Of a stretch of DNA of 64,000 bases, positions 21,261-64,000 are shown in pieces. The notes under the pieces are model-generated. The model was not told where the DNA came from and did not search any database. It was given only the letters and a program-made list of their open reading frames with translations. Each line of letters opens with the position of its first letter. Positions within the stretch are counted from its first letter, which is position 1. The DNA comes from Bacteroidales bacterium (GTDB lineage: Bacteria > Bacteroidota > Bacteroidia > Bacteroidales > UBA10428). The stretch lies in contig CBDDKV010000001.1 in the NCBI GenBank assembly GCA_965230395.1, positions 654 through 64,653 of the forward strand, read 5' to 3'. The translations under genes and the position numbers were made by a program.

Positions 21261-24200
21261 TTATTCTTTTATAAAACGAATGTATTTATTGTTAACTTTT
21301 AATAGGTATATTCCAGAATTGAGCCTGGAAACATCAACATTATTGCCGTTTCCGGACATTAAACTCTTTCCAGACAAGTTCAGTACTGAATATTCCGTTG
21401 CTTTGTCGATTCCGCTCAGGAATAGTTTATTTTTAACCGGGTTCGGATAAATCTTAATCCCTTCAGCGAAAGGTTCGTTCGTTAAAGTCATTGACTTCAA
21501 TGTAGCACAACCTTTACCGATAATAAATTTACCTTCCGGAGTATCTGACTGACCAGGATTAAAGTTATGCTGATATCTAAAGAAGAAAGTTACCTCATCA
21601 TCATCTGCAAAGGTTTTTCCTCCGGCCTGAGCTATTGTCCAGGTCCAGGTATTACCATCCTGATTTCCTCTCATTCCCTGTGCTCCCCCTCCATTCACTG
21701 CTATCCAGAGATCCACAAACGATGAGTTAACTTTAGACTCAAATGATATTTCAAGCGAAGTTGAACCTTCTGCTTGATTAACCTTATAGCTATAGTTGGT
21801 TTCATCTTCAATACATTTAGGTTCGTCCCCTTCTTTAAGGGTTGTAGCCATAACTGAATCGGTTTTAACTTCGGCTACATTATTAAACGCGGAAACTGTA
21901 TAGAAATAATTCGTTTCCGGTAAGAGGCCTGAGTCCTTATAACCTGTAGCATTAACTTCAAGGGTTGCCACAACTGATCCGTCGCGATAAACCTTAAAAC
22001 CGTCTTCATTGTCTGCATTATCGATCCAACTAAGCTCAATTTCCGAGGCTGAAACAGCCTTTGCAGCAAGACTGGTTGGTACAGCAGGTGCCGATGGTGC
22101 TTTTTCCACTACTATTTTTACGGCATCGGTATCCTGTTTTCCGTCATTATCCGTTACCGTAAGGGTAATATGATGTTCGCCAACCGGTAATTTTACTGTT
22201 GGTGAAACTCCGCTGGATATTTGCTGCCCGTTGTTTTTCCAAACATAGCTTTCTATGCTTCCATCTGAATCGTAGCTTGCAGAACCATCTAATATTACTC
22301 CTTCAACTCCGTTTCCATCGCCGTCCGCTACTTTTTGATCCGGTCCGGCATTTGCAACCGGCCTTCCGACATCTGCAGTAACACTGTAGATTTTTACCTG
22401 CTTTACATCATATCTTTCGCCATTCAGATCTTCTTCAACAATAAACCCGAACTCATTACTATAACTCTGTCCTCCACCTGTAAGCGAGTACTTGTATTTA
22501 AACCGTACTGAATCGCCGGCAGTAACCCCGCTAAAAGTATATTCTGTATTTATTGGAGATGAATAACTTCCTTTAAATACCCCATTGTTCCACCAATCGA
22601 TGTAACAGAATGATTCTGCAATTCCTTCTGTTAAAGGAACAAATGTTGCTGTTGGGTTTGCAACGCTTTTTGTTACTTCTGCCTGCAAGTCTTTAGATGA
22701 ATCTTCAAAAACAGTAAAACCTACACTACTTTTCGTACAATATAGCCTTACAAACTGCCCCTTAATGACCGGACTGGCTTCGTATATTTCTATACCGCCT
22801 TTTCCTTCGGTTGTTGTGCTTAAATCTTTATAAGTGGCAAATGATATATCGTCGGATACCTGTATTTTATACTCCTTGGCATAATCAAATCCCCAGAGCA
22901 CATCAACACGGGTAATATCGCGGGGTTCATCCAGATCAAAAACAAGCCATTCGGGAGAAGCGGAAACAGCACTTTGCCATGCGGTTGACTCGTTCAAGTC
23001 AATTACATTATTTGCACTGCCCTCATTGGAGGAAGCTGTTACCACCGCGCCAGGTGCAACATTTGGAACAATAGTTATTTCTACTCTATCGGTAGCTTCT
23101 TTACCATCATTGTCGGTTACCTCCAGGACAATATTGTGAATACCTTCGCTCATCATCCGTTCAGCCTTTTCTCCTTCGGCTATTATTTTATCCCCTTCCT
23201 TCCAAACATATTTCACAATTTCTCCCAAATCCGGATCGTAGGATTTTGACCCGCTTAACGTTACCAGCTCTTTTCCATCGCTGTCAACATCGGTAATTAA
23301 CTGGTCTTTACCTGCATCTGCTACAGGAACACCGTTTGTTACCGTGATTTTAACATCGTCGGAAGAGGTATTTCCATCGTTATCTGTAACTTCAAGGGTA
23401 AGAATGTGTTCTCCTGTTTTTAGGTTTATTGTTGCGGTTTCTCCCTCAGCTATTTGTGAGCCTTCACTATTTTTCCATATCCAACTGGTAATACTTCCAT
23501 CCGGATCATTACTTTCAGAACCGTCGAGTGTCACCTGCTCTGCCCCATTGTCATCGGTATCAATTATAACCTGATTTGAACCGGCATAGGCCAATGGTTC
23601 TGTATCGCTCAAACCGGCGGTTACCGATATGGAATCCATATACACAACCGTACGGTGAGAATTTCCAAACATAAATGATATACGTGCTGTTTCTGTTGCC
23701 GGTGCTTTTGCCTTAAATGTATATGATTGGGGCTCTGTTCCTATTTCTACGGTCCATATTTTATAGAATTCCCAGTCATTGTCCATCCAAGGTGGATCTT
23801 GCGAATTGTTTGACGGGATATATTCGTGCAAGGGGTTAGGATGATTATCCATAAAATACAGTTTACAGGTTGTTGGTTCATCGGCTACAGCCATAAACCT
23901 AAATTCGTACTCTTGTCCTTCCTCAACCTGGAATAAACGAAATAACTGAAGTTTCCAGTCTTTTGGATTTGGCACATCGTCAAACCACTCCAGGCGCACA
24001 CAGTGTTGCCCCGAAAGTTTTCCTGTACTGTCCATGTTCCCGGTTAAATCATCAGGGGCCGGCTTTACTGATCCGTTATCTTCCATTGTTCCCATAAATC
24101 TCCAGTCTATCGATAAACTTGTTGAAGGCATATCGAATTCTACATCATCAAGCATTTCCACAGTCTGCTCCATATTTACTTCCAGAGCGGCAGAAGGACG

Positions 24201-25442
24201 GCTTTCGTTTCCGGCCCGATCCATTGCCGTAATCTCAATGCTTGTTTTATATCCATAGCCTAAATCCACTACCGGATAGTCTTCCCGGCTAATATAATCC
24301 CAGAATTTACCATCTTTATATACTGAATAGTGCGCAAGGCCTGCTTCTCCATTGTCTGTAACAGCATCCCATACCAGTTTGTCCCCTACTCTTCGAAGGT
24401 TTTTAACCTGATTTGGGGCATCGTTGTCGTCGTAGAAAAATAATGCACGGGTCTTCTTTTCGGTTGTTGCGCCAAGGTAAGCCGGATCGGACAATTGTTC
24501 GAAAAACTTATCTTTTACAGCACCGGGTATTTGCAAACGCGCATCGCCCCAGGGAAACCAGCCGTTACCGGCTATCATATCCTGTCCATCCCAATCCCAG
24601 TTTATATAGCACATTTGTTTAATTGTGGAATGGGCATTTATCTGTGAGAAATATATATTATACCAGCTCCAATCTTTAGAATTATCTTTTCCGTTCACAT
24701 TATTCGGAGCTGCCTCGCCAATTAGTATGGGCTTTTTCGTGGCTAATGAAAGTTCTATCATCTCTCTGGCATTTGAATGAAGAACGTTCCCGTCTCCGAT
24801 ATCGCCAAAGGTGTTGTAACCGACCCAATCGGTATATTCATCGCCCGGATAAAAATTCTCTGCCCCTGAACCTCCAGATAATCCGGCGTTTAGCACTGTA
24901 GCTATTTCCAGGTCTGCATCCCTGATTTTTTGGGTTATTATCCGGAACATTTTTTTGTACTCTTCAGCGGTCCAGCCTTTTTGGTTGTTGTACTCATATC
25001 CTATTCTGAGGAAACAAGGCATCCCAAGGTATTCAAATCCTTTTATCAGGTTGTCGAGCTCTTTTTCATGCTTCCCATTTATAATGTCTTCATAGACATA
25101 ATTGAGGTACAACCCGATCTGTGGTATAACATAATATCCCTGTCTGTGATATTTTAATAATTCCTGTTTTAGTTCGTATGACCAGTTTTCTCTAACGTTG
25201 TAAGTGTCGTAGTAATCCATAAAAAGAATGGGTTTCCTGTTTTCAGGCGCTATATTCCAATAGTTTTCAAAGCCGTCAAAGCCGCAAACCCCTGCCTGTC
25301 CGGCACCGGTATATATTCGCCCTTTTAGTTCTAGTAATGCCCCATATTCCACTCTTTTTTTAACCTGGGCATTCGTACTCAGGAAGAGTAAGCTTACAAA
25401 AAATAAAGCCAATACTCTTTTTGCATAAGGTTTTGTTTTCAT
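21261..25442 (-). CDS. T9SS-secreted multidomain glycoside hydrolase, type A. Domain order: GH26-like catalytic, FN3-like, CBM-like, 2 PKD, discoidin with nested insert, PKD, FN3, Cys-capped beta-sandwich, T9SS CTD
   Basis: 1393 aa with a signal peptide ending TNAQ. Catalytic motifs are LRIGYEYNN, YPGDEYTDWVGYNTF, ILIGEAAP and INWDWD...WGDARL. PKD motif [20 protein letters not shown]; discoidin motif VIDLNESTAWQS...GQFVRLY; FN3 motif SEIELSWIDNADNEDGFKVYRDG. The tail is YPNPVKNKLFL...SGIYLLKVNNKYIRFIKE. Confidence 0.9.
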   Translation of the reverse strand: MKTKPYAKRVLALFFVSLLFLSTNAQVKKRVEYGALLELKGRIYTGAGQAGVCGFDGFENYWNIAPENRKPILFMDYYDTYNVRENWSYELKQELLKYHRQGYYVIPQIGLYLNYVYEDIINGKHEKELDNLIKGFEYLGMPCFLRIGYEYNNQKGWTAEEYKKMFRIITQKIRDADLEIATVLNAGLSGGSGAENFYPGDEYTDWVGYNTFGDIGDGNVLHSNAREMIELSLATKKPILIGEAAPNNVNGKDNSKDWSWYNIYFSQINAHSTIKQMCYINWDWDGQDMIAGNGWFPWGDARLQIPGAVKDKFFEQLSDPAYLGATTEKKTRALFFYDDNDAPNQVKNLRRVGDKLVWDAVTDNGEAGLAHYSVYKDGKFWDYISREDYPVVDLGYGYKTSIEITAMDRAGNESRPSAALEVNMEQTVEMLDDVEFDMPSTSLSIDWRFMGTMEDNGSVKPAPDDLTGNMDSTGKLSGQHCVRLEWFDDVPNPKDWKLQLFRLFQVEEGQEYEFRFMAVADEPTTCKLYFMDNHPNPLHEYIPSNNSQDPPWMDNDWEFYKIWTVEIGTEPQSYTFKAKAPATETARISFMFGNSHRTVVYMDSISVTAGLSDTEPLAYAGSNQVIIDTDDNGAEQVTLDGSESNDPDGSITSWIWKNSEGSQIAEGETATINLKTGEHILTLEVTDNDGNTSSDDVKITVTNGVPVADAGKDQLITDVDSDGKELVTLSGSKSYDPDLGEIVKYVWKEGDKIIAEGEKAERMMSEGIHNIVLEVTDNDGKEATDRVEITIVPNVAPGAVVTASSNEGSANNVIDLNESTAWQSAVSASPEWLVFDLDEPRDITRVDVLWGFDYAKEYKIQVSDDISFATYKDLSTTTEGKGGIEIYEASPVIKGQFVRLYCTKSSVGFTVFEDSSKDLQAEVTKSVANPTATFVPLTEGIAESFCYIDWWNNGVFKGSYSSPINTEYTFSGVTAGDSVRFKYKYSLTGGGQSYSNEFGFIVEEDLNGERYDVKQVKIYSVTADVGRPVANAGPDQKVADGDGNGVEGVILDGSASYDSDGSIESYVWKNNGQQISSGVSPTVKLPVGEHHITLTVTDNDGKQDTDAVKIVVEKAPSAPAVPTSLAAKAVSASEIELSWIDNADNEDGFKVYRDGSVVATLEVNATGYKDSGLLPETNYFYTVSAFNNVAEVKTDSVMATTLKEGDEPKCIEDETNYSYKVNQAEGSTSLEISFESKVNSSFVDLWIAVNGGGAQGMRGNQDGNTWTWTIAQAGGKTFADDDEVTFFFRYQHNFNPGQSDTPEGKFIIGKGCATLKSMTLTNEPFAEGIKIYPNPVKNKLFLSGIDKATEYSVLNLSGKSLMSGNGNNVDVSRLNSGIYLLKVNNKYIRFIKE

Positions 25443-25800: not shown

Positions 25801-25832
25801 CAACAAAAGAGTGGCCCTTCAAAGGGCCACTC
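25801..25832 (-). terminator. Terminator of 25846..29937
   Basis: Perfect hairpin GAGTGGCCC-TTCAAA-GGGCCACTC, followed on the minus strand by TTTTGTTG. Confidence 0.8.
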
Positions 25833-25845
25833 ATAATTTTAATGC

Positions 25846-28800
25846 TTATTCTTTAATAAAGCGGATATTTTTATCATTAATTCTAAGTATGTAAATACCA
25901 GAATTTAAGCCAGAAACATCAACAACTTTTCCAATGCCTTTAATAACTTTGGCTCCGGAAAGGTTCAAAACAGAATATTTAGTTATTCCATTAACACCAT
26001 CAATAAATAGTTTGTCCTTAACCGGGTTAGGATAAACTTCAATTTTATCGGCTAATGATCCGTCAGTTGAAGTTAAAGACTTCATAACAGCACAACCTGT
26101 TCCAATAATGAACTTTTCTTCCGGTGTATCGGATTGGCCCGGGCTATAATTATGCTGATATCTGAAGAATAGGGCAACCTCATCGTTATCGGCTAAGGTT
26201 TTCCCACCTACCTGGGTAACGTTCCAGCTCCACACATCTCCTTCTTTACTGCCTCTTACTCCCTGTAGTCCGCCACCATTTACTCCGGTCCATAAGTCTA
26301 CAAATGATGAGCTGACTTTTGATTCAAATGTTATGTCAAGAGCGGTTGATCCTTCAACCTGTTTTACAGTATAATCATAATCATCTGTTGAAGCAACACA
26401 GTTGCTGTTCGATTGGGCATCTTTACCGTCACAATCCTCATCTATTCCGTTATCAGGGATATCGGTTGCACCAGGATTAATTGAAGCATCATTATCATTA
26501 CAGTCAACATCAGCCGTGTATCCGTCACCATCGTTATCTTTTGGTGCCGTTGCGTCTTTACCGTCACAATCTTCATCTATTCCGTTATCAGGAATATCGG
26601 TTGCGCCAGGGTTGATATCAGGATTGTTATCGTCGCAATCTACAGCAATTCCATATCCATCATTATCATTATCCGTTACACCTAATACACCGTCACAATT
26701 TTCGTCAACATCATTGTCTGGTATTTCAGTTGCATCCGGATTAATAGAAGCATCGCTGTCGTTACAATCTACTGATGTGTCGAAACCATCACCATCATTA
26801 TCAACTGGTTCATAATCTACACTATAAACACGAACTTCATTCAGTGCATAGTAGAACCCGGTACTAACTTCGCCTACAGTGAATTCATAAGGATTGCTTT
26901 CAACCTGAGACCCTCCTTTAACCGTATACTTATATTGATAAGATATAACATCTCCTTTAGCAGCATTTACAGTATAAGGCTCTTTCAGTGTTACCTGATA
27001 GCTTCCCTGGAATGTTCCGTTAATTGTAAGTTCAAGATAGCAGAAGCTTGCCCCTACCTGATCTTTTAATGGAGTAAAGGTCAGTGTTGGAGGTATTTCA
27101 GGAGAGATTGTTGTTTTGAAGTTACCAGAAGCATCTTCAATAACATTGCCCTTATCTGCACTTTCTTTCATTGCAATTCTCAGGTACTGGCCTTGTTTCA
27201 CAGGCTCAAGAAGGAACTCGTCCAATTTTCCGTTTCCTTTGTCTTCGCTACCAATTACATCATACGTTGTAAAGCTGCTGTTGTTTGATAACTGAATTTC
27301 GTAAACCGTAGCATATTCTTTACCCCATAGAAGATCAACTCCCATAATACCTACTGGTGCCCCAAGGTTTAGCATTACCCATTGTTCTCCTTCAGTTTCT
27401 TCACTTATCCAGCCTGTTTCTTCATTGTTATCAATAACATTAGAAGCCGGCTGAGTGCTTGATGAGGCTGTTACGGTTGCATTCGATGTAACGTCTGTAA
27501 TAACTGTTACTGTTAAATTGTCAGAAACAACGCGCCCATCGTTATCTTCAATCGTTAACGTAACTGTGTTTACCCCTGCAGGAAGATCTACTTTAGCCAT
27601 TGGTGTAGTAGCAATCACTTTTCCGTTTGCTTCCCATGACCAGCTAACTATTGTTCCATCATAATCTTTACTACCTGAACCATCAAGTTGTATCGTTTCC
27701 GAGCCATTGTCGTCTTTATCTACAACCGTTTGGTCATCTCCGATAATGATAATCGGATCGCCATTTGTTACAACTACGAAAAATGCATCGCCGTTTACAT
27801 AACCATCATTATCTTCTACTTCAAGATAAACTTTATGAACACCTGAGTTAAAGTCAACATTTACTTTCTCTCCTTTTGCCAGTTCAACTCCATTTTCTTT
27901 CCATGAGTATCTGACAATTGTTCCGTCAGTATCATATGAACCTGAACCATCAAGCATAACGGTCTCGGTTCCGTTATTGTCTTCATCCATAGCTAAAAGT
28001 GTATCGGCAGGAACGATCGGTATGGGCACATTATCATCAAACCCGGTCCATACTGAAATAGAATCTAACCATATGGTTGTCGGTTCAAGGTGCCCCATCA
28101 TAAATGAAATACGTGCAGTAGAACTTTCAGGAGCAGTAGCCTTAAATTTATACGATTTAGGTTCTGTGCCAATGGTAACATCCCATATTTTATAAAAGTT
28201 CCAGTCACCATTCTTACCATCAAAATAATGTGGATAAGTTCCGTCGCGGGTCATTACAAAGTCGTGCTGCGGATTTACGTGGTGATCCATGAAGTAAAGC
28301 CTTATTGTTCTTTCTTCTTCGGCAACTGCCTGGAATTCAAAAGTATACTCTTCGCCTTCTATGGCCTGAAATTCCTGCATTAACTGAAGTTTCCAGTCTC
28401 TTGGACGATATTCTACAGCTTTTGCCCAGTAGTTCCCCATATTCGGAGAAAGAGGATAATCAGGAAGTATAAGTGAATTTGGACCCGATAGTTTACCTGA
28501 ATTATCGATAGAAATATCGTCTGGGGCATTTTTGGCTCCACCGTCCTTTGTTCCTACCCATTTCCAGTCGGCAGCTACACTTGTTGCAGGATAATTAAAT
28601 TCACCATCCCATAAGTGTTCATATTTAGCATTTTGTTTCACTCTTAAAGCACTTGATAGTGGCCCTGCATTACCAGCACGGTCCATCGCCAATACTTGTA
28701 CATTGGTGTAAACACCATAGCTAAGGTCGTGTACAGGATATTCTTCTCCCATGATGTAATCCCAGAATTCTCCGTCTTTATAGATGGTGTAATGCGCTAT

Positions 28801-29937
28801 TCCGGATTCTCCGTTATCGGTTACCGGGTTCCATACAAGTTTATCTCCGCTTCTTGCCAGACCGGTAACTTTTGGTGGTGCCTGATCATCATCGTAGAAG
28901 AATAATGCACGGGTTTCTTTTTCGCTTGCTGCAAAGAAATATTTTTCATTATTAAGTCTTGAAAAGAACTGATCCTTAACAGCACCTGGTATTTGCAGAC
29001 GTCCGTCCCCCCATGGGAAAAGTCCGTTTCCTCCGATCATATCCTGGCCGTCCCAGTCCCAGTTAATGTAGCACATCTGCTTAATAGTAGGCTGATCTTC
29101 TATCATCGCAAAGTAAGGCTCATAAAAGGCAGTCCAGTCTTTAGAATTACCTTCACCATTTACCGGCCAGTTTGTTCCGGCTTCACCAATTAATACCGGT
29201 TTGTTTTTAGTCACTGCTGAATCGATCATTGTTAAGGCAGTAGAATGTTTACCACCGGCAATGTCTGATGTGAATGTGTTGAAGCTAATCCAGTCTACAA
29301 CGTCGTCGCCGGGATAGTAACCAAAAACTCCCTGAGTTCCCGAGAGGCTGGCATTCCAAACCAATGCACATTCTATGCCTGCGTCCTGAATTTTCTTCGC
29401 AATTACACGGTAAACCTCAGCAAACTGTTCGGGTGAATAAGGAGTTAACCATGATACATTTGGAAAATTGTTGAACTCGTATCCGATACGGATAAAGCTG
29501 GGCATACCTAAATATTTCAACCCTTCAATGAGGTTGTCCAGGTTACCGTCCTGCGTTCCGTCAAGATACTGCTGCCAGATATAAAATACATTGATACCAA
29601 ACTGTGGCAATACATAATATCCCTGGCGATGATATTTAAGTAACTCCTGTTTTAATGCCAGCGACCACCTCTCGTTCATGTTCCAGGTGTCGTAATAATC
29701 CATGAAAATGTTTGGTTTCATATCTGCCGGAGCGATATCCCAGTAATTTTCGAAACCGTCGAAACCGGTAGTACCTGCCTGACCAGCCCCAGACCAGATT
29801 CTTCCTTTTAATTCGAGCGCTGCCCCGGATTCGGTACGAGGCTGCATCTGGCCCTGTAAGCCAGTTGCATAAAGCAATACTGCCAGAAGTGTCCCTAATA
29901 AAGGCAACTTCCTTCCAAAGTAATTTTTCATTTTCAA
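25846..29937 (-). CDS. T9SS-secreted multidomain glycoside hydrolase, type A. Domain order: GH26-like, FN3-like, CBM-like, 2 PKD, discoidin with nested insert, 3 MopE-like repeats, Cys-capped beta-sandwich, CTD
   Basis: 1363 aa with a signal peptide ending LQGQ. Motifs: [32 protein letters not shown]. The tail is [11 protein letters not shown]...[18 protein letters not shown]. Confidence 0.9.
26413..26810 (-). repeat. 3 tandem MopE-like putative metal-binding repeats (coding)
   Basis: The unit is DNDGDGY....DC[ND]D.[DN]..INPGA.[ED]IPDN.[IV]DE[DN]CDG. The antisense artefact ORF 26402..26815 marks the same span. Confidence 0.8.
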
Positions 29938-30077
29938 TTAATGTTAGTTAGTTAATAATTAGAATTATGATAATGTTCTCCGATACGGAGAACCGTTATC
30001 CGAGCTACAAAGGCATAAGGAGGGTGCTTCAAAATCCTTGGAATATTGTGCCGGACGGCCTCCTTATTTTTCTTATT

Positions 30078-30152: not shown

Positions 30153-30246
30153 TTTCCTAAACAATACAGACCGTTGCGTATGCCTCTATTTTAGATTTTT
30201 TGGCTTTATGATTTTTTAGTTTTGTTTTATTGGTTAATTAGAAAGG

Positions 30247-30281: not shown

Positions 30282-30301
30282 TCTTTTTGCTTTGCTAATG
30301 T

Positions 30302-32193: not shown

Positions 32194-32201
32194 TATTGAA
32201 T

Positions 32202-54077: not shown

Positions 54078-57000
54078 TTATTCCTTAATGAATTTTACCC
54101 TTTGATTAGAATTTGTGATTAAAATATATAATCCTGCATCTATATTGGATATATCTACTACTTTACCTTTACTGTTTATAACATTTACGCCTGAAATGTT
54201 ATAGATTGAGTAAGATGTATTTTCATCAATACCTCCAATGTATAATTTACCAGAGGCCGGGTTAGGATATACGTTAACTGTGTTTGCCAAAGAATATGAA
54301 CTTTGAGAAGCTTTGAAGTTTTCTTTCATTCCAGGGGTACGTGATCCACCACTGTATACATTGATTTCTGCTATTGCATAAACCTTACCACCGCCTACAG
54401 CTCCTACTTCAAATTCGAAGTCATCGCTAAATACGCCGGCTCCTGAAGGTAATGTGTAGTTATAGTTAAATGTAACAACATCTCCATCTTTAACACCCTG
54501 AACGGTATATGGCTGGCCCGGAGTTGTCGGGTAGCTTCCCTTATCGGTTCCGTTTACAATAATTTTAAGGTAACAGAAGCCTTTAGCAATACCTTCTACC
54601 AATGGTTCAAAAGTTATTGTTGGCGCTGAACCACCCTGACTGGTAACAACTGCTTTAAAGTTTCCGCTTCCATCAACAAAGTCGCTAGTGGTTCCATTGC
54701 TTTCTGTGCCATAAACACGCATGTACCGGCCTGTAAGTTCACTATTATAAGAAACTTCACCTCCTTTTGCCCCAGTCTCAGAAGCTATGGTTTGAACGGT
54801 AGTAAAATCTCTATCGTTAGATACCTGTACTTCGTAAGCTGTAGCAAAGTAGCTTGAATGCCATGTTATGTCTACCTGGTCGAATTTAACTTCGCTTCCA
54901 AAATCCATAGCTAACCATTGTGGATTATCGCTTTCCTGACTAACCCAGCTTGTTGCTACATCGTTATCAACAACATTATAAGGATCTTCAACTTCTGAAG
55001 AAGCCCAAATTGTAGCATCTTGTCCTATTTCTGGTACTACATGAATCACAACATCATCAGTAACTACGTTTCCATCATTGTCGGTTACTGCTAATGTTAT
55101 AGTATGTGCCCCAACAGTAAGTACAGCTTCGGCAACTTCGCCAGTAGCTATCGTATTGTTGGCTTCTGTCCAAACCCACGATGTTATTTCACCAACAGCA
55201 TCGAAACTTCCCGAACCATCCAGGGTTACTGTTTCTGAACCATTTCCATCTACATCAGTAACAATCTGGTCTTCGCCAGCTTTTGCAACAGGCTCGCCAG
55301 CAGTTACAAATACTTCAATTGTTCTTGTTTTAACTTTACCTTCACTTGTTGTAATTGAAAGCTCAATAGAATGTGTCCCGTTCGCAAGGGTTACATTAGC
55401 TGTCATCCCTGAAGCTGCGTTTTCGCCGTCAACTTTCCATGAATAGTTTGTAATTGAGCCTGTTGGGTGGCTTGAACATGAGGCATCAAGCATTACATTT
55501 TCACTACCGTTTTTATCTTCATCAATAATTATTTCTTCGTTTGCTGGTGACTTAATACATGCGTAACCATCGATAGACTGAGTTTCTGCTACCAATTCAC
55601 CAGCAGGAACAGCGATAACAGTTCCATTAGAGAATTCAACAACTATTTCAGATGCAGTTGGGTTGTATGCAACGTAAGTTAAATCGGAACCTTCTCCGAA
55701 TACTGCGTACGAAGGTGTGTTTGCTGTAATATCCGAACGGTATGGTCCCATTGCTGCCATATTATGTATCCAGTGATAATAATGAGGGGCCGTTTCGCTT
55801 GGTGGACTGGGCTCTGTTTCCCCATGAGGCTGAGTTTTGTAATATCCCAATGCCCTTTGTGGATCAGCTAATGCTAAATACTCCCAGAAAAGTTCGTTCC
55901 ATCTGTTAACACTTCCGTACTTATTAATAAACCAATCGATAAGTTTTGTTTTAACATACTCCGGGTTACGGGCTAAGTAAGTTGAAGCAGCTGTCATTGG
56001 AAGTAGGTTAATACCTACAGGGTATTCCTGATAACCTGTTTGCTCACTTCCAAACCAGGTCGAAAAGTCTGATTTATCACCAAACACAAAACCTGACATT
56101 GGATATAAATAGTCGGCTTCGTAACCAAAAATTGCATGTTCTTTATTTCCGAAATCTTTACCTTTTGGATATGTTATTTCATTGTAATCCCACCAGTAAT
56201 TTAATGTTGCGTCAGATTCGGTTGTATATATATAAATTCCTAAATCACGAATTTCTTTGTTACCCGTTTGCATGCCCCAAAGAGCAACTGCTGAAGCATA
56301 GTTTAATGCCTCTGAACTTGATTCCTGGTTGTTTCCATCACGGAAATCTGCATCTCCAGTTGCCCAGGAAAATCCTTGATATGGGCTCATGAACCGTAAT
56401 GGAGGGAACATTGGGTCATCTCTTTTCCAGTTATTGGTATACTTTATAAGGTTCTCAACTCTACCACCCCAATCTTTTGCCCATTGAGGGTTGTATTTAG
56501 CAAGAATAGCTGCTGCTTTTATCATGTATCCCATTTGAAAGTGTGCATCGTTTAAGTGCGCATCACTAAACATCCCGCTTTCCGGTGGAATACCTATAAG
56601 GGCTCCATAATTTGAATCGTAGTAAAAATAAACTTTGTCCCCATCCTCATAGGTTAACCAGTCTTCTAAATTTCTTCTGACCCATGCAAGAAGGGTATCA
56701 CGTTGTTCTGTTAATCCAACCTGGTCTGCTATGTCAATAACCTGAGCTGTTCTTCCCAATGTTACACCAGTAGCATATACTGTATTGCCCTGGAACACAT
56801 TATTACCTTCTCCAGCTGCAATTACTTCATCAACTTTTGCTATTAGTTCCTCGTCGCTATATCCACTTTCCTCTGTAGCGACCAATGGAAATGCGGGCAG
56901 AACACCGTAGTACTTCAATTCCGTCTCAAAAACACCACCTTCGGCTTCTATTAGTTTCATGTCTCCCCTGGCAGAGTTGAATTTAATATCGTGCGGCGCA

Positions 57001-57998
57001 AGGCTACCTTTATAGTTTAACCACTGGTGCGGATATAATGCATAAAGCAGTTTATTTCCAGCGTCTTCTTTTTGCTCAAATGTTGCAGTAAACGTTGTTT
57101 TTACAAGCGCATTTTGCTCATCGTATACCCAATCTACTTTTGTATCGGTAATTATGTTATATGCAAATTTGTTTAAATATTTTATATCCGCTATTTTCTT
57201 GTTAATGTCAATATTATCAGGAATATTAGCTACAGAAAAGTAATCTTTGCCTGCCAGGTCTGACGTTAAAGTAATTTTACCTTCTGAATCTGTTGTATAG
57301 GACCATGTTGAGCCTGTTGGTGCATATAATGCATAACTATCTTTCCAGTCTACCCATTGTGATCCCCAGTCATCGTAAAACCTGATAGTTACCTCAACGG
57401 CGATCACATTTCCTTCGTTATACCATACGGTAGAAGGAAGCTTGGTCTTCACCATTATCCCATTATTGGATGTAAAATTCACAAATGGATTACCGTTAGA
57501 AGTGTATGTAACTAATGCTCCATTGTCCTGCGAAATTTTTATTCCCCAATCTGAGTACGCATCAACTTTAGGTTCTCCTGCCGTTCCACTAAGCGTTGTT
57601 ACAATAAGTGCATCAGATGCCTCATGAACATGCCTAAAGTGGGGGTTTGCAGGGCCTGCATTGTAAACAAAGCGCAAGTTCATTGCCGTAAGGCTGGGTC
57701 CACCGCTTCCTTTGTCTACATGAACACACATGGGATCGGCAATAAGGCTAATCATGTTAGGATAGTCGCCATCAGACCAGTTATTTCCATCGAAGTAAAG
57801 GTTTGAATACCAGCTATGGGTATTAAAAGGAGCCTTCATATTACCCGTATAACGAACCGGAGAGACCGGTAAGTTTGCTCCTGAAGAATTGTCTGTTGAA
57901 TAAGGCTCCCCTGTTGGTTGAGAGTAGCCATAATTCATTGTTAATGTAATGAGTACCATTAGGGTACCCACTAATTTGATCGTTTTTAGTTTTCCCAT
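54078..57998 (-). CDS. T9SS-secreted GH81 endo-beta-1,3-glucanase. Domain order: GH81, 2 PKD, discoidin with nested insert, CTD
   Basis: 1306 aa with a signal peptide ending GYSQ. GH81 core signature: LNDAHFQMGYMIKAAAILA...FPPLRFMSPYQGFSWATG...DGNNQESSSEALNYASAVALWG (~56290-56335). PKD motif: VTLDGSGSFDAVGEITSWVW. Discoidin motif: VVDNDVATSWVS...GRYMRVYG. The tail ends ...AGLYILITNSNQRVKFIKE. Confidence 0.92.
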   Translation of the reverse strand: MGKLKTIKLVGTLMVLITLTMNYGYSQPTGEPYSTDNSSGANLPVSPVRYTGNMKAPFNTHSWYSNLYFDGNNWSDGDYPNMISLIADPMCVHVDKGSGGPSLTAMNLRFVYNAGPANPHFRHVHEASDALIVTTLSGTAGEPKVDAYSDWGIKISQDNGALVTYTSNGNPFVNFTSNNGIMVKTKLPSTVWYNEGNVIAVEVTIRFYDDWGSQWVDWKDSYALYAPTGSTWSYTTDSEGKITLTSDLAGKDYFSVANIPDNIDINKKIADIKYLNKFAYNIITDTKVDWVYDEQNALVKTTFTATFEQKEDAGNKLLYALYPHQWLNYKGSLAPHDIKFNSARGDMKLIEAEGGVFETELKYYGVLPAFPLVATEESGYSDEELIAKVDEVIAAGEGNNVFQGNTVYATGVTLGRTAQVIDIADQVGLTEQRDTLLAWVRRNLEDWLTYEDGDKVYFYYDSNYGALIGIPPESGMFSDAHLNDAHFQMGYMIKAAAILAKYNPQWAKDWGGRVENLIKYTNNWKRDDPMFPPLRFMSPYQGFSWATGDADFRDGNNQESSSEALNYASAVALWGMQTGNKEIRDLGIYIYTTESDATLNYWWDYNEITYPKGKDFGNKEHAIFGYEADYLYPMSGFVFGDKSDFSTWFGSEQTGYQEYPVGINLLPMTAASTYLARNPEYVKTKLIDWFINKYGSVNRWNELFWEYLALADPQRALGYYKTQPHGETEPSPPSETAPHYYHWIHNMAAMGPYRSDITANTPSYAVFGEGSDLTYVAYNPTASEIVVEFSNGTVIAVPAGELVAETQSIDGYACIKSPANEEIIIDEDKNGSENVMLDASCSSHPTGSITNYSWKVDGENAASGMTANVTLANGTHSIELSITTSEGKVKTRTIEVFVTAGEPVAKAGEDQIVTDVDGNGSETVTLDGSGSFDAVGEITSWVWTEANNTIATGEVAEAVLTVGAHTITLAVTDNDGNVVTDDVVIHVVPEIGQDATIWASSEVEDPYNVVDNDVATSWVSQESDNPQWLAMDFGSEVKFDQVDITWHSSYFATAYEVQVSNDRDFTTVQTIASETGAKGGEVSYNSELTGRYMRVYGTESNGTTSDFVDGSGNFKAVVTSQGGSAPTITFEPLVEGIAKGFCYLKIIVNGTDKGSYPTTPGQPYTVQGVKDGDVVTFNYNYTLPSGAGVFSDDFEFEVGAVGGGKVYAIAEINVYSGGSRTPGMKENFKASQSSYSLANTVNVYPNPASGKLYIGGIDENTSYSIYNISGVNVINSKGKVVDISNIDAGLYILITNSNQRVKFIKE

Positions 57999-58335
57999 TG
58001 TTAGGTTAGTTTAATTAATAATTTAAATCTGTGAGTGAGAGATCAAAACAATCCGGACCACTGATTCTTATGAGATAGGGTATATTGCCGAGAGCATATT
58101 TACTTCTGGTTTATGAAGCATAAAAATGCTACAGCTTATGTATGTTCCGAATAATGAGAGCCTATTGCATTTTAAATTGCGACAGGGTGTTTTGAATGAG
58201 AAAATGTGAGAGTCAAATGAAACCGTATGAGGTTTTCAGGATTCACCTGAATATGTGTTTTGTAGTAGTTCATTGTTTTAGTAGTTTTTAGGTTGTGTGT
58301 GTTTCGTTAGTTTGTTAGTTGTAGTTGTTTTTACA

Positions 58336-58548
58336 TCAATAAAGCTTTACGTTTTGTTTGTTCGAAATAGATAAAAATCTTATATCCTGTTCAGAATCGT
58401 TACTATGATCGCTAATGACCAGATACTTTCCGTCCGGAAACTGTAACCTGTCTTTTAACAAACCTTCTCCCAGACCTTTGTAAACCAATTCTCCCGCTTG
58501 GTTGAACACAACATAGGAACAATTTTTATCTATCCGGTTAATCATCAT
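58336..58548 (-). pseudogene. Stand-alone T9SS CTD-like ORF, a probable relic
   Basis: In this 70-aa ORF, INRIDKNCSYVVFNQAGELVYKG...FPDGKYLVISD parallels ITGLDKNEYYTVYNFAGKAVF...LASGMYFLRTG of the adjacent gene. It has no signal peptide or cargo domain. Confidence 0.5.
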
Positions 58549-58567
58549 TTTTGTTTGTTTTTGAAAT

Positions 58568-58589
58568 ACTGCCCCTTTTCAGGGGCAGT
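58568..58589 (-). terminator. Terminator hairpin after 58626..62465 (could act on either strand)
   Basis: ACTGCCCC-TTTTCA-GGGGCAGT. The T-run is on the plus side and an A-rich stretch is on the other. Confidence 0.6.
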
Positions 58590-58625
58590 TTTCTTTTAAC
58601 CTTAATCCATTAAATGCTCATCATA

Positions 58626-61600
58626 TTATTCCTTAATGAACTTAATTATATCATTGGAACCTGTTCTCAAGAAATACATGCCTGATGCAAGATTTTTTAT
58701 ATCGACAACTTGACTGTTATCGGTAAATACTGCTTTACCTGCAAAATTGTAGACGGTATAATATTCGTTTTTATCTAAACCGGTAATGTTAAGAACTGTA
58801 TTAACCGGGTTAGGATATACGGATACTTTGCTTTCTCTTTGAACTGTAGCTGCCGTTGTTATGTTTTCAGCGTTTTTGGTCCTTGCAGCCAACAACTGAC
58901 TGTTTAGGTTGCCAGAACCATGCATCCAAACATCTTTGGCCATTTCGGTATTCCACTTATTTTTAATTGATGAAGTAGCCTGTAAGCGGGCATCTCCCCA
59001 ATATCCTTCGTTGTAGTCTGGAGGTCCGAATTTAGGCTGGTCCTCCCAGTCGGCGTTAATGTAATGTACACACCTGATTACATCTTTATTGCTATAGATA
59101 TAATTGAAATACGGAGTAAACCATTCATCCCAGATTTGAGATTCTGTTTTTGCAACTGCATTTTGAGCAGCATCTCCGTCCCAAACAGGAGAAATGTTTT
59201 TATTTTGCCCTGCTTCCAAATCATATCCTTGTGGTGTTGATTCTGCAACCATCACCGGTTTTCCTTTACTTCTCGCAAATTGTACTAGTTCATCGGCCAA
59301 TTCCTTTTGTGTATGTGTGTGATAGCTTGAAGCTGTAGGTTGCTCGTTTGGCAGAAGGAACCATGAAAGTCCTACCCAGTCTACATAGTTGTCGCCAGGG
59401 TACCAGTCCTGAATGTTTTCATGTCCGTTCTCAATTACATCGTCCGTTGGGCTTGCGCTCGACTGCCATACCCAGGCTACATTGTTTACTCCCTGGTTTC
59501 TAACACCGTCAACAATATTTCTGTATGCCTCTTGATACCACTCCTTTTTAGCAACAGGGTCATCTCCATTGTTAAGGTCGAAGTATCCAATGTTCCAGTT
59601 TCCATCGAATTCGAAGCCTAAGCGGATATAAATAGCCGTATTAGCGTATTTTTTACAGAATCTCGCGATGGCATCTATTTCAGCCTGCCATTCCGTAGGG
59701 TTTTCTGCTAATCTACGAACACCCTGCTCATGCCAGTAATAAATAGAACCGTCAGAGTTCCAGACTCCTTCAGCAAGGTTTAATCCAATAATAAGTGCCG
59801 AGTTTTCATATCCGGTTACAGACCATGCTGTATGAATAGGTCCTGCATCCCAATAAACTTCGTCATCAAGAACATCTCCGCTGGTGTTTATTCCAAGGCC
59901 TCCGTAAGGGACTCCACCCTGTGTGGCACACTCGTAGAATGCTACATAAGAAGTAATCGCACCTGGTTCGGGAAAGTCTGTTTCGGGTTGTCCATGTTTA
60001 CCGGCATATTGCGCTACAGAAGTTAAATCCTGACCAACCGAGAACAGAATTTTTTGTCCGGGAGGCAATAGTTTTGCTCCGGCAACAGGATCATCAGGAC
60101 AAATATTTGGACAAGAACCACCGCAATCAACGCCTTTTTCATCGCCGTTCATAATTCCATCGTCACAGGTAGGTTCCGGACACGCGGGGCAAGAACCGCC
60201 ACAATCAACGTCTGTCTCGTCGCCGTTCATAATTCCATCGTTACAGGTAGGTTCTGTTACACATGCAGGACATGAACCACCACAGTCTACATCTGTCTCA
60301 TCGCCGTTTTTGATACCGTCGTTACAGGTAGGCTCTGTTCCACCCACGAATGAACACTTATCGGTAGTAAATTCAACCGTTTTCTCGGGTGAAATATACT
60401 GGCTGATATCATTATCCTGGGCCTTGAATTGTATTTTGTACTGTTGGCCAAGGGTAGCACTAAAATCTTTGTAGTAATAGCCATCTTTTTTCTCGCCAGC
60501 ATAACATCCCCCGTCAACACATACATACTGCCATTGAGCTGACCATCCGTTGTCTTTATGATAAACTCTCATTGTTGTATTATCAACATAGCTTACGCCA
60601 AATTCACCACAAGAACCACTAGTTGAACCACAACTGTTCGGGCATGAACCGCCACAATCTACTCCGGTCTCATCTCCGTTCTTGATTCCATCAGTACAGG
60701 TAGGTTCTGGCTCACACGCCGGACATGAACCACCACAATCAACGCCTGTCTCATCACCGTTTTTGATTCCATCGTTACAGGTAGGCTCTGTTACACATGC
60801 AGGACATGAACCACCGCAGTCTACACCCGTCTCATCGCCATTTTTGATGCCGTCGTTACAGGTAGGCTCTGTTCCACCTACAAATGAACACTTATCGGTA
60901 GTGAATTCAACCGTTTCCTCTGCTGAAATATACTGGCTGATAGCGTCGTCCTGGGCCTTAAACTGTATTTTATATTGTTGACCAAGGGTAGCACTAAAAT
61001 CTCTGTAATAGTATCCATCCTTTTTCTCTCCGGAATAACACCCCCCGTCAACACATACATACTGCCATTGAGCTGACCATCCGTTGTCTTTATGATAAAC
61101 TCTCATTGTATTATCATCTACATAGCTTATGCCAAATTCACCGCATGAACCGCCTGTTGAACCGCAACTGTTCGGACATGAACCACCGCAATCAACGCCG
61201 GTTTCATCGCCATTCATAATTCCATCATCACAGGTTGGTTCATTTGTACAGGACGGACATGGTCCGCCACAATCTACTCCGGTTTCACCCTGATTTTTAA
61301 TCCCATCGTTACAGGTAGGATCAGGAAGTGTGCTTCCACTATGCAGGTATCTCGTTCCTTCTCCGAATGTAGACACCCAGTGACTTTTAACGGTTGAATT
61401 TACTTCAACCCGTGAATCTGTCCAGTTACCATCTTTCCAACCTTTAGCCGGCCAGTCAGAATTAATATATGCCAATACTCTTACATCGTTATTTACAACA
61501 ACATTATGCAAGCGGTTCAGGTAATCTTTAAACTCTGACGCTGGTGGTGTTTGTGAAGAGGTTGACTGAAAAGCCGATTCCGCTATGATAATAGATTTAC

Positions 61601-62465
61601 CATGCTCTTTTGCAAAATCCATACTTTTCTGTAATTCAGGGTCAACTTCCTTACCTTCACAGTTAGCTACTCCGTTACACTCTATACAGACATCATTATT
61701 GAAAATAGAGAATCCGAAGAAATCTACATAATTATCTCCGGGATAAAGCCATTTTGTGTCGTTAAAGCCGCGTACAGGGTGGTAAACCAAATCAACATTG
61801 TCGGTTTCTGCCCTTACGATATCAGCAATACGTTTGTATGCATTGATATATGCGTAAATATCCAAATCCGCCACTTTTGTCGGATCTTCGAATACGTTTA
61901 TTCCTGCATTTGCTTGTTGTTCAAGCCATGTTTGAGCATCTGTCTCTTCTCCTTTGTAAGCAAACCCGAACATGCTTACTTCGTATCCAATTCTCAGATA
62001 GAATTTCACATCGGGCCTGTCACCCATTATTTTTGCAAATGATTTAATCTTGTCGTCCAGTTTACCATTTTCAATCGCCTTACAGGCTTCCCATATGGCA
62101 TTTGAATTAAAGTCAGGTTTGGTTGGATCCATTTGACCAAAACCTCCTGCGGCAGGATTGTCCTTAATACTTAGGGCTACCAATGCATAATTGTCATCCT
62201 GTACAGAACGAACGTAATCTAAAAATTCATTATTTGCGCCGTCATCCCCTTGTTCAATGGTTCCCCAGTATACCGTCCCATAATGGGAACTTCCGGCGGG
62301 CGCTTTTCCTATTCCGTTTACATATGCTTTATATTCATCTTCATAGGTTTGCCCTATTAACAATACGGTCTTTCCCGTTCCCGGGTCGTATTTCTGGGCA
62401 GTAATGTGATTTGTGATCAGAAATGTAGTTAGTAGTGTTAAAAACAAATAAAATCTTCTCCTCAT
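58626..62465 (-). CDS. T9SS-secreted enzyme with two catalytic domains. Domain order: GH26-like lineage B, long mini-module/X array, GH26-like lineage C, CTD
   Basis: 1279 aa with a signal peptide ending ITAQ. Lineage B motifs: VLLIGQTYEDEY, YLRIGYEVSMFGF, LYPGDNYVDFFGFSIF, IIIAESAFQ. Lineage C motifs: LFSVGQDL, YIRLGFEFDGNWN, WYPGDNYVDWVGLSWF, VMVAESTPQGYD. The tail ends ...SGMYFLRTGSNDIIKFIKE. Confidence 0.9.
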   Translation of the reverse strand: MRRRFYLFLTLLTTFLITNHITAQKYDPGTGKTVLLIGQTYEDEYKAYVNGIGKAPAGSSHYGTVYWGTIEQGDDGANNEFLDYVRSVQDDNYALVALSIKDNPAAGGFGQMDPTKPDFNSNAIWEACKAIENGKLDDKIKSFAKIMGDRPDVKFYLRIGYEVSMFGFAYKGEETDAQTWLEQQANAGINVFEDPTKVADLDIYAYINAYKRIADIVRAETDNVDLVYHPVRGFNDTKWLYPGDNYVDFFGFSIFNNDVCIECNGVANCEGKEVDPELQKSMDFAKEHGKSIIIAESAFQSTSSQTPPASEFKDYLNRLHNVVVNNDVRVLAYINSDWPAKGWKDGNWTDSRVEVNSTVKSHWVSTFGEGTRYLHSGSTLPDPTCNDGIKNQGETGVDCGGPCPSCTNEPTCDDGIMNGDETGVDCGGSCPNSCGSTGGSCGEFGISYVDDNTMRVYHKDNGWSAQWQYVCVDGGCYSGEKKDGYYYRDFSATLGQQYKIQFKAQDDAISQYISAEETVEFTTDKCSFVGGTEPTCNDGIKNGDETGVDCGGSCPACVTEPTCNDGIKNGDETGVDCGGSCPACEPEPTCTDGIKNGDETGVDCGGSCPNSCGSTSGSCGEFGVSYVDNTTMRVYHKDNGWSAQWQYVCVDGGCYAGEKKDGYYYKDFSATLGQQYKIQFKAQDNDISQYISPEKTVEFTTDKCSFVGGTEPTCNDGIKNGDETDVDCGGSCPACVTEPTCNDGIMNGDETDVDCGGSCPACPEPTCDDGIMNGDEKGVDCGGSCPNICPDDPVAGAKLLPPGQKILFSVGQDLTSVAQYAGKHGQPETDFPEPGAITSYVAFYECATQGGVPYGGLGINTSGDVLDDEVYWDAGPIHTAWSVTGYENSALIIGLNLAEGVWNSDGSIYYWHEQGVRRLAENPTEWQAEIDAIARFCKKYANTAIYIRLGFEFDGNWNIGYFDLNNGDDPVAKKEWYQEAYRNIVDGVRNQGVNNVAWVWQSSASPTDDVIENGHENIQDWYPGDNYVDWVGLSWFLLPNEQPTASSYHTHTQKELADELVQFARSKGKPVMVAESTPQGYDLEAGQNKNISPVWDGDAAQNAVAKTESQIWDEWFTPYFNYIYSNKDVIRCVHYINADWEDQPKFGPPDYNEGYWGDARLQATSSIKNKWNTEMAKDVWMHGSGNLNSQLLAARTKNAENITTAATVQRESKVSVYPNPVNTVLNITGLDKNEYYTVYNFAGKAVFTDNSQVVDIKNLASGMYFLRTGSNDIIKFIKE
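60100..61325 (-). repeat. Cys-rich mini-module / X-domain block with an internal 534-bp tandem duplication (coding)
   Basis: Eight mini-modules and two X domains. The antisense artefact ORFs starting at 60526 and 61060 are near-identical, which gives the 534-bp period. Confidence 0.8.
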
Positions 62466-63090: not shown

Positions 63091-64000
63091 TTATTTCTTA
63101 ATAAACTTAACTGTTTCGTTTGATTTAGTTTTTAAGAAATACATTCCTGCTCCAAGGTTAGTCAGGTTAAGTTCTGCTTTCTTATCTTTAAGAACAGCTT
63201 TACCTGCGAAGTTGTAAATAGTATATTCTTCGTTTTTCTCTAAACCTTTAATACTAATTACATCGTTTACAGGATTAGGATAAACAGAAATTCTGCTTTC
63301 CTGAACAGTAGTATAAGTTACATCAGAAGTATTGTCGCCACTCTTCTTAGAAGACAACAGGTTAGCATTTGTATTTGACGAACCATGCATCCAAACACTT
63401 TTGCTAAGTTCTGATTTCCAGTTTCCTGCAATCTGGTCGTTAACATGAACTCCGGCTCTACCCCAGTATCCTTCTCTGTAATCACTTTCACTACCAAAGT
63501 TATAGGTATCATCGTCCCAGTTAACATTGATATAAGTTACATGACGAATTACGTCTTTGTTTGAGTAGATATAGTCGAAATAAGGTGTGAACCATTCGTT
63601 CCAGATTTGTGAAGCACTTTTGCTAACACATCCCTGACCGGCAGCACCGTCCCAAAGGGTACTAATGTTACAGTTTTTCATTTCAACTAAATCATAACCT
63701 TGTGGAGTTGACTCAGCAACTAGTACAGGCTTGTTCTTTCTTCTTGCAAGATTTACTATTTCATCAGCAAGTTGTTTTTGAGTTTTAGGATTGTAACCAG
63801 CAGCTGTTGGTTTTTCGTTTGGTAACAAGAACCATGAAAGACCTAACCAGTCTACGTAGTTATCACCAGGCCACCAGTCTTCAACATTTTCATTAGCTTC
63901 ATCAAGAATTTCATCAATAGGAGAAGCACAAGACTGCCATACATAAGCAACATTATTTACACCTTCGCCGCGCATTACATCAACAATTCTTCTCCATGCA
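63091..64000 (-). CDS. T9SS-secreted glycoside hydrolase: C-terminal part only (GH26-like lineage C + CTD). The 5' end lies outside the window
   Basis: The frame stays open to nt 64000 (AWRRIVDVMRGEGVNNVAYVWQS...), matching the lineage C domain of 50416..53901 by eye. Motifs: WWPGDNYVDWLGLSWF, VLVAESTPQGYD. The tail is YPNPVNDVISI...AGMYFLKTKSNETVKFIKK. Confidence 0.88.
   Translation of the reverse strand, partial: AWRRIVDVMRGEGVNNVAYVWQSCASPIDEILDEANENVEDWWPGDNYVDWLGLSWFLLPNEKPTAAGYNPKTQKQLADEIVNLARRKNKPVLVAESTPQGYDLVEMKNCNISTLWDGAAGQGCVSKSASQIWNEWFTPYFDYIYSNKDVIRHVTYINVNWDDDTYNFGSESDYREGYWGRAGVHVNDQIAGNWKSELSKSVWMHGSSNTNANLLSSKKSGDNTSDVTYTTVQESRISVYPNPVNDVISIKGLEKNEEYTIYNFAGKAVLKDKKAELNLTNLGAGMYFLKTKSNETVKFIKK

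Follow-up and report, generated by a model that had tools for sequence, protein, structure and literature searches.

We identified an array of modular glycoside hydrolase (GH) genes in an uncultured Bacteroidales bacterium (GTDB lineage Bacteroidota; Bacteroidia; Bacteroidales; UBA10428) in which nearly every catalytic domain belongs to family GH26 and which is accompanied by a single sensor-regulator gene. The array occupies positions 21261 to 64000 of a 64,000-nucleotide stretch (i.e., positions 654 to 64,653 of contig CBDDKV010000001.1, assembly GCA_965230395.1; referred to here as the window) and extends beyond its right edge. We consider it probable that this locus, which has no SusC/SusD pair in the regions searched, attacks algal cell-wall polymers outside the cell with enzymes that a type IX secretion system (T9SS) exports and that are regulated by a protein of the BguR type.

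Calling of open reading frames (ORFs) resolved 21261-64000 into 12 consecutive minus-strand genes (G1 to G12; Table 1) of 606 to 1393 amino acids (aa), as a sequence-only reading of the window had reported. The spacers between the array genes measure 79 to 627 bp and contain no ORF of >70 aa. The G12 reading frame is uninterrupted up to base 64000 (i.e., the gene is cut by the window edge), and the continuation that the same reading had expected was found on a sister contig (L001; ctg339824) from sample ERZ25074695 of the European Nucleotide Archive (ENA), which is 99.5% identical to the window across a 10.9-kb overlap. The array runs for ~13 kb more on this contig, in the order full-length G12, G13, a 976-aa regulator on the same strand, and G14, adding two GH26 enzymes and the regulator. 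The right-hand extension (the regulator, G13, G14, and the N terminus of G12) was therefore read on the contig of a sister strain and not in the window. The whole locus spans ~56 kb and comprises 14 enzyme genes and 1 regulator gene, with 17 GH26 domains and 1 GH81 domain.

The locus is bounded by housekeeping genes on both sides. At the right border, the opposite strand of the sister contig encodes ftsX, DUF3098, bacA, and truB (precomputed Pfam annotation), and the 21-kb left flank contains PspC/PadR genes, a DEAD-box helicase, carotenoid genes, a BglX-type GH3 gene, hemD, and a gene for an FG-GAP protein. Pfam searches of the array and of the larger ORFs of the flank detected no SusC/SusD, ABC or MFS transporter, or regulator, either within 21261-64000 or across the 21-kb left flank. 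Hidden Markov models (HMMs) of SusC/SusD pairs, built from few seeds (four Pfam-confirmed pairs), gave no match in the window, L001 to L003, or L164 and L165, even at an E value of 0.01. The sequence-only reading had described the stretch as free of SusC/SusD, transporters, and regulators. This description is correct for 21261-64000, which is indeed an enzymes-only run of T9SS cargo, but not for the whole locus as far as the regulator is concerned, since the 976-aa sensor lies on the sister contig. That reading had also raised the prospect that susC/susD might lie immediately outside the window; neither the left flank nor the right border holds such a pair. Of the features by which polysaccharide utilization loci (PULs) are recognized, an adjacent susC/susD pair is thus missing from the window, its 21-kb left flank, and the right border, and the co-localization of carbohydrate-active enzyme (CAZyme) genes with a glycan sensor/regulator is present, in the form of 14 CAZyme genes and a sensor-regulator resembling the hybrid two-component system (HTCS) type.

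All 14 enzymes carry a predicted Sec signal peptide and a predicted type A T9SS C-terminal domain (CTD). Each of them has a Pfam Por_Secre_tail match at its extreme C terminus. The matches of G7 and G9, the lowest-scoring with Pfam, are under the Pfam cut-off, but these proteins, like the other two of the four examined with TIGR04183, exceed the cut-off of that model. The N termini, judged by their residue pattern, show in 14 of 14 cases a basic and a hydrophobic stretch, a small residue, and then Gln as mature residue 1, which corresponds to the Q-rule of Bacteroidetes (PMC5837995). Eleven N termini were read in the window, and that of G12, with the same features, on the 99.5%-identical sister contig, so that the signal peptide and T9SS sorting domain claimed earlier for each of the 12 window genes were recovered throughout. 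The true starts of G4 and G6 are probably internal Met codons, at 35081 (where the signal peptide of G4 begins) and 42716, respectively. Secretion of the enzymes would thus be T9SS dependent, as judged from these terminal signals.

The array enzymes represent one family expansion rather than an assortment of glycanases. Eleven of the 12 window genes encode GH26 enzymes and one encodes a GH81 enzyme; an HMM built from the paralogues located 14 GH26 domains in the 12 genes (13 wholly and 1 partly in the window), which, with the GH81 domain, agrees with the earlier count of at least 14 catalytic domains. The GH26 domains fall into three clades (A, B1, and B2), and all 17 in the locus retain both catalytic glutamates (acid/base and nucleophile) within the motifs R-[IL]-G-[YF]-E and [GAC]-E-[SA], which correspond in alignments to Glu147/Glu243 of AlXyn26A and to the XYL4 motifs. 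These domains appear to be catalytically competent. In PDB searches, the nearest solved relative of clade B2 was the Vibrio beta-1,3-xylanase XYL4 (PDB 2ddx/3vpl; E value of 7.8e-39 for the B2 domain of G9), and that of clade A was the Algibacter mixed-linkage xylanase AlXyn26A (PDB 7xjr), to which aa 15-324 of G1 aligned with an E value of 1.8e-36 and with both catalytic Glu residues matched. Clade B1 is equidistant from XYL4 and AlXyn26A (~1e-9), as seen for G3, which also matched the CBM31 structure 2cov (4.9e-19). Mannanases scored 1e-5 or worse. By these comparisons, the GH26 domains belong to the beta-1,3-xylanase/mixed-linkage-xylanase branch, and they would be expected to hydrolyze beta-1,3-xylosidic linkages. 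Although the catalytic glutamates are conserved, identity to XYL4 and AlXyn26A is only ~35 to 40%, and the array domains reside in much larger, multimodular T9SS proteins.

Two architectures account for most of the genes. In class A (G1, G2, G4, G5, G6, and G8), the GH26 domain leads, and in class B (G3, G7, G9, G11, and G12), carbohydrate-binding modules (CBMs) of family CBM31 are combined with one or two GH26 domains. G10 is, on the basis of its full GH81 module, an endo-beta-1,3-glucanase (Pfam Glyco_hydro81C, 1.3e-43; PDB 6fop, 1.1e-107; BH0236, 1.2e-84). The binding modules of the array include CBM31, CBM56, CBM4-like, CBM6/35, and CBM32-like types. The ~300 aa that follow the class A GH26 domain have no Pfam match; their predicted structure (predicted local distance difference test score, 61) consists of an fn3 domain and a CBM4-like sandwich, the top Foldseek match is the laminarin-binding CBM4 of Lam16A (1gui; E value of 1.5e-7), and distant homologues of the insert carry PF02018. 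A second catalytic domain in this part of class A (aa ~331-632) was ruled out, as the region is all-beta and of fn3 plus CBM4-like fold. When the first 640 aa of G1 served as the query, only 83 homologues were recovered among 5.8 billion proteins; class A modules are thus a small family. The same search returned G4 and G5 of this organism and not G1, G2, G6, or G8, and the database copy of the contig seems to be incomplete. The middles of G12 and G13 (L001 ~14960-15540 and 11140-11750) consist of six to eight Cys-rich repeats of ~24 aa (TCNDGIQNGNETGVDCGGSCPAC), which join the two GH26 domains and have no Pfam match; Cu-binding_MopE repeats occupy the equivalent place in class A proteins.

The regulator gene lies inside the array, ~6.5 kb past the window edge. 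Its product comprises a signal peptide, a tandem beta-propeller, a Y_Y_Y domain, one transmembrane helix (LSKLMYIFYFLLFGFLIAGVV, following Y_Y_Y), a coiled coil, and a putative C-terminal helix-turn-helix (HTH) of the LuxR/GerE type. The sensor matched Reg_prop (1.3e-10) and Y_Y_Y (7.6e-12), and nothing in the PDB matched it other than the sensor domains of solved HTCSs (3v9f and 4a2l). The protein showed neither kinase domains (HisKA, HATPase) nor a receiver domain at an E value of 0.01 in a type of search that reveals all of them in a canonical HTCS (L029). An HTH profile of 14 orthologues matched exclusively LuxR/FixJ-type HTH domains in the PDB, albeit weakly (9e-4 to 0.5). The protein appears to have the architecture described for BguR. 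BguR spans the membrane and is a one-component activator of Formosa agariphila's laminarin PUL, and its homologues have been reported solely with beta-glucan PULs containing SusC/SusD (bioRxiv 10.64898/2026.01.10.698779). The two proteins are alike in size, in their signal peptide, tandem beta-propeller of the HTCS kind, Y_Y_Y domain, single transmembrane helix, and helical linker, and in lacking kinase and receiver domains; the putative HTH would be the counterpart of the GerE-type HTH of BguR, and the gene of each protein adjoins glycan-degrading genes that it presumably controls. In contrast to BguR, the regulator described here and its orthologues accompany T9SS-tagged GH26 genes without SusC/SusD.

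This association recurs in other genomes. In Fulvivirga sp. M361, a Flammeovirgaceae metagenome-assembled genome (MAG), a Cytophagales UBA9432 MAG, ~13 Aquimarina genomes, and 3 Flammeovirga genomes, orthologues of the regulator gene directly adjoin a T9SS GH26 gene that encodes two catalytic domains. Overall, no fewer than 20 genome loci besides the present one have the regulator next to T9SS-tagged GH26 genes. Because this observed pairing is conserved across families, we propose that the regulator controls the GH26 genes; this is the principal argument for such control, and the ligand would be a product of the same substrates. A survey of species-representative genomes and metagenomes with a GH26-B2 profile and two peptide patterns (160 loci, with flanks of +/-10 kb) revealed at most two GH26 genes within +/-10 kb at any locus. 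SusC/SusD occurred within +/-10 kb at 0 of 29 loci with T9SS-tagged GH26, 16 of which had the regulator, and at 8 of 131 loci with untagged GH26. Two further organisms of the same ENA sample have smaller arrays. One shows three consecutive T9SS GH26 genes, and the other, a 5.2-Mb Saccharicrinis MAG, has six T9SS GH26 genes that come after the regulator, with trehalose and glyoxalase genes on the flanks; the HMMs from the four SusC/SusD pairs had no match at that locus. An element of the form TTTGnGTAGTA-N5-GTAGT is conserved 25 to 60 nt 3' of the stop codon of regulator orthologues in Fulvivirga, Aquimarina, and Saccharicrinis (Table 1). It may be a binding site of the regulator. The GTAGT-N6-GTAGT element was not found in the window or the sister contig.

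The Saccharicrinis genes also bear on the origin of the array, which the sequence-only reading had attributed to tandem amplification. They pair with specific paralogues of the locus (G7, 75%; G6, 74%; G13, 68%; G2/G5, 60%; G8, 55%), and the orders regulator-G13 and G8-G7-G6 are preserved. The genes of the array are indeed paralogues, but a recent tandem amplification as their main origin is ruled out: the window paralogues mostly share 66 to 72% nucleotide identity, and each also has its own orthologue in another genome; they are therefore old. The locus is nevertheless still changing, as indicated by near-identical modules, CBM31 copies, and CTD remnants. The C-terminal GH26 modules of G9 (50670-51997) and G13 (L001 11590-12915) share 95% nucleotide and 99% amino acid identity, which suggests a recent duplication or gene conversion, and the CBM31 copies inside G11 are 84% identical. 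Two intergenic gaps contain degenerate T9SS CTD remnants (E values of 6e-4 and 1e-3 with a CTD HMM built in this analysis), both of which look like relics of lost paralogues; the one between G2 and G3 probably is such a relic.

Terminator-like hairpin-plus-T structures are strong after G2, G4, G6, and G10, and the G11 stop is also trailed by a hairpin; their presence after several genes argues for several transcription units instead of a single operon. In the upstream regions of the array, matches to sigma-70-type promoters were at chance level, and the Bacteroidota -7 box TAnnTTTG occurred once in the sense and eight times in the antisense direction in 5.7 kb of sequence upstream of all 15 locus genes. 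The array promoters may belong to a different class, which perhaps depends on an activator.

PUL-free T9SS CAZyme clusters have already been described (Naas 2018; McKee 2021), and the earlier statement that no system of this form was known does not stand. Multimodular T9SS CAZymes outside PULs, including operon-like clusters, are reported for "Candidatus Paraporphyromonas polyenzymogenes" and Cytophaga hutchinsonii (PMC5831590), and a 2021 review by McKee et al. (cited in PMC10792170) names a non-PUL T9SS mechanism. Those clusters share with the present locus large multidomain GHs with a type A CTD, some having two catalytic domains of the same family, and an operon-like arrangement without SusC/SusD. 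However, they comprise about four genes each, and their enzymes, of GH5, GH9, and similar families, are directed at cellulose and hemicellulose, whereas the locus described here has 14 genes, 18 catalytic domains that are nearly all GH26, and a dedicated membrane sensor-regulator. The beta-1,3-xylan loci of Vibrio sp. EA2 (xul) and of Bacteroidota likewise begin with an extracellular XYL4-type GH26 enzyme, often with CBM31; they combine one or two xylanases with a transporter, xylosidases, XylA/XylB, and a regulator, and those of Bacteroidota retain susC/susD (PMC12125979). In our locus there are enzymes and a regulator alone, and the enzymes are tagged as T9SS cargo. In the chitin PUL of Flavobacterium johnsoniae, a T9SS-secreted multidomain enzyme (ChiA) also makes the first attack on an insoluble polymer (PMC5127042; PMC10792170), but this hybrid PUL places the secreted enzyme within a SusC/SusD locus, and no SusC/SusD is found here in the locus or at its borders. 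New here are the scale, the predicted beta-1,3-xylan target, and the presence of a BguR-type regulator outside glucan PULs.

The following sequence of events would account for these features. The enzymes would cross the inner membrane via Sec, signal peptidase I would leave an N-terminal Gln, and the type A CTD would pass them to the T9SS. Outside the cell, their binding modules would anchor them on insoluble beta-1,3-linked wall polymers, with CBM31 directed at beta-1,3-xylan, CBM56 and the CBM4-like modules at beta-1,3-glucan, and CBM6/35, CBM32-like, and PA14 modules also taking part. The three GH26 clades (XYL4-like, AlXyn26A-like, and a third) and GH81 would then cut these polymers to oligosaccharides, which the BguR-type regulator would sense in the periplasm, raising expression. 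Import and final breakdown would be encoded by unlinked genes.

Several observations weigh against this interpretation. The regulator HTH matched GerE with an E value of 5.9e-4 and 19.8 bits, under the cut-off of 23.5. No shared operator was found upstream of the array genes, in which there were no common 9- to 12-mers and no more dyads than in shuffled sequences. The predicted substrates rest on the ~35 to 40% identity to characterized GH26 enzymes and on CBM family names. The substrate of class A in particular is uncertain, as these proteins bear glucan-type CBMs and lack the long lid loop 1. In AlXyn26A, lid loop 1 forms a tunnel and confers mixed-linkage specificity (PMC10470212). Because an alignment showed that class A is without seven residues in this region, the exact substrate of AlXyn26A cannot be transferred to it.

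The most serious alternative, which we regard as possible but rather unlikely, is a hybrid system with the array as its secreted arm, in which a beta-1,3-xylan PUL with SusC/SusD, xylosidases, and xylose catabolism is encoded elsewhere and co-induced; the array would then be physically unlinked from a PUL rather than independent of one. The retention of susC/susD pairs in known Bacteroidota beta-1,3-xylan loci (PMC12125979), the eight surveyed loci in which untagged, single-domain GH26 homologues adjoin SusC/SusD, and the need for some import of the released oligosaccharides are all consistent with this arrangement, as is Aquimarina gracilis, whose regulator-GH26 module lies 5 to 10 kb from a GH26/GH43/MFS/LacI cluster. 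However, no such PUL occurs at the right border or within the 21-kb left flank, nor was SusC/SusD found within 10 kb of any of the 29 T9SS-tagged loci.

The array could instead be mainly a weapon for algicidal or invasive breaching of living algae with beta-1,3-xylan walls (siphonous green and some red algae) and not for scavenging detritus. Eighteen catalytic domains against one wall type would be an extreme redundancy, adhesion-type modules (PA14, PKD, and CBM32-like) are numerous, a GH81 enzyme of the callose/laminarin type is present, and close homologues occur in a Flammeovirgaceae MAG from coral black band disease and in Marinibactrum halimedae. The locus nevertheless contains no toxins, proteases, or lipases, and the same regulator-enzyme module is found in ordinary saprophytic genera such as Aquimarina and Fulvivirga. 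We consider a primarily offensive role unlikely.

It is similarly improbable that the substrates are misassigned, i.e., that some or all of the GH26 domains, especially those of class A, act on beta-1,3-glucan, beta-1,3/1,4-glucan, or mannan. Pfam matches to GH26 are weak, the family includes lichenases and mannanases, class A combines beta-1,3-glucan-type CBMs with the absence of the long lid loop 1, and beta-1,3-glucoxylans are mentioned for Caulerpa in PMC13351767. On the other hand, the best solved relatives of all three clades are XYL4 and AlXyn26A, with mannanases scoring far lower, and class B proteins carry up to three copies of CBM31, a family known from beta-1,3-xylanases.

A misjoining or expansion of repeats during MAG assembly, to which the start of the sister contig within the array (~30033 of the window) and the module pair with 95% nucleotide identity might point, is hardly credible, given that two independent contigs agree at 99.5% across 10.9 kb, the other paralogues (66 to 72% nucleotide identity) are too dissimilar to confuse an assembler, the reading frames are intact with catalytic residues retained, and the gene order is partly syntenic with the 5.2-Mb Saccharicrinis contig.

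The remaining features of the window and the sister contig are as follows. The 203-kb sister contig, which begins in the G2/G3 gap, is without G1 and G2; its start could be an assembly break or a structural difference between strains. The G+C content is 0.455 to 0.474 at 50001-54000 (G9), ~0.40 to 0.43 in the remaining array, and 0.33 to 0.41 in the left flank. The left flank opens with a putative envelope-stress module (45-2446), consisting of a PspC-domain protein, a PadR regulator, and a long PspC/LiaF-like membrane protein, which is followed by tRNA-Gln (2609-2680). On the plus strand at 6305-9149 are five consecutive ORFs of 104 to 204 aa without a Pfam or NCBIfam match, and an NCBIfam scan of the unannotated left-flank ORFs gave nothing useful. 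A carotenoid cluster (9993-16682) encodes lycopene cyclase, a 188-aa unknown ORF, phytoene synthase, phytoene desaturase, and a PF04240 protein. It is broken by the plus-strand gene for the BglX-type GH3 beta-glucosidase (12247-14475), 7 kb from the array, which could process beta-gluco-oligosaccharides. The left-flank DEAD-box helicase is only ~70 to 74% identical to those of Cytophagales and Marinilabiliales and by itself supports placement no lower than the phylum Bacteroidota.

TABLE 1 Genes and other features of the array (window positions unless another contig or locus is named)
Feature	Position	Strand	Composition or location
G1 (1393 aa; class A)	21261..25442	-	Signal peptide, GH26-A (aa 27-333), fn3 + CBM4-like (~331-632), PKD x3, F5/8-C (CBM32-like), fn3, CBM56, type A CTD
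Hairpin + T-run, terminator-like	25809..25832	-	Directly 3' of G2 stop
G2 (1363 aa; class A)	25846..29937	-	GH26-A, fn3 + CBM4-like, PKD, F5/8-C, MopE repeats, CBM56, CTD
Gap	29938..30301	-	Degenerate T9SS CTD remnant
G3 (606 aa; class B)	30302..32122	-	GH26-B1, CBM31, CTD; catalytic Glu retained
12-bp hairpin + T-run, terminator-like	32168..32194	-	Directly 3' of G4 stop
G4 (977 aa; class A)	32202..35135	-	GH26-A, fn3 + CBM4-like, PKD, MopE, CBM56, CTD
G5 (1119 aa; class A)	35227..38586	-	GH26-A, fn3 + CBM4-like, PKD x2, F5/8-C, CTD
Hairpin, terminator-like	39170..39196	-	Directly 3' of G6 stop
G6 (1187 aa; class A)	39207..42770	-	GH26-A, fn3 + CBM4-like, PKD, CBM6/35, MopE x3, CBM56, CTD
G7 (939 aa; class B)	43244..46063	-	PA14, GH26-B2 (aa 179-524), CBM31 x2, CTD
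G8 (1386 aa; class A)	46166..50326	-	GH26-A, fn3 + CBM4-like, PKD x2, F5/8-C, MopE x4, CBM56, CTD
G9 (1161 aa; class B, two catalytic domains)	50416..53901	-	GH26-B1 (16-336), CBM31 x2, GH26-B2 (690-1079), CTD
Hairpin + T-run, terminator-like	54042..54072	-	Directly 3' of G10 stop
G10 (1306 aa)	54078..57998	-	Complete GH81 module (aa ~48-803), PKD x2, F5/8-C, CTD
Gap	57999..58625	-	Second degenerate CTD remnant
G11 (1279 aa; class B, two catalytic domains)	58626..62465	-	GH26-B1 (17-383), CBM31 x2, GH26-B2 (790-1196), CTD
G12, C-terminal 302 codons	63091..64000	-	Part of GH26-B2, CTD
G12, full gene (1046 aa; class B)	Sister contig L001 13822-16962		GH26-B1, Cys-rich repeats, GH26-B2, CTD
G13 (1055 aa)	Sister contig, beyond window		Two GH26 domains
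Regulator (976 aa)	Sister contig L001 6630-9560	Same as array	Architecture in text
G14 (1125 aa)	Sister contig, beyond window		GH26, fn3, CBM6/35, three CBM31, CTD
GTAGT element sites	L005 7844-7867; L006 7357-7380; L165 9407-9430; Aquimarina L022/L025		3' of regulator orthologues

Going beyond the interpretation that we favor, the regulator and the T9SS GH26 enzymes might form a self-contained "sense and secrete" system parallel to PULs, in which a xylan-specific clade of BguR-type regulators directly controls a regulon of secreted enzymes without a SusC/SusD pair of its own. Such a system would have grown by duplication, domain shuffling, and gene loss into the largest single-family CAZyme array known, and would serve to breach the beta-1,3-xylan walls of green or red algae, perhaps living ones. 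We offer this fuller scenario tentatively and consider it doubtful as a whole.

The locus and the recurrent module of regulator and T9SS GH26 genes point to a second, secretion-based route of polysaccharide degradation besides SusC/SusD loci, and beta-glucan PULs would no longer be the sole setting of the BguR type of regulator. With their varied binding modules, the 17 intact GH26 domains would provide a panel for studying specificity toward beta-1,3-xylan, mixed-linkage xylan, and glucoxylan, and they may serve as a source of enzymes for the processing of algal biomass.

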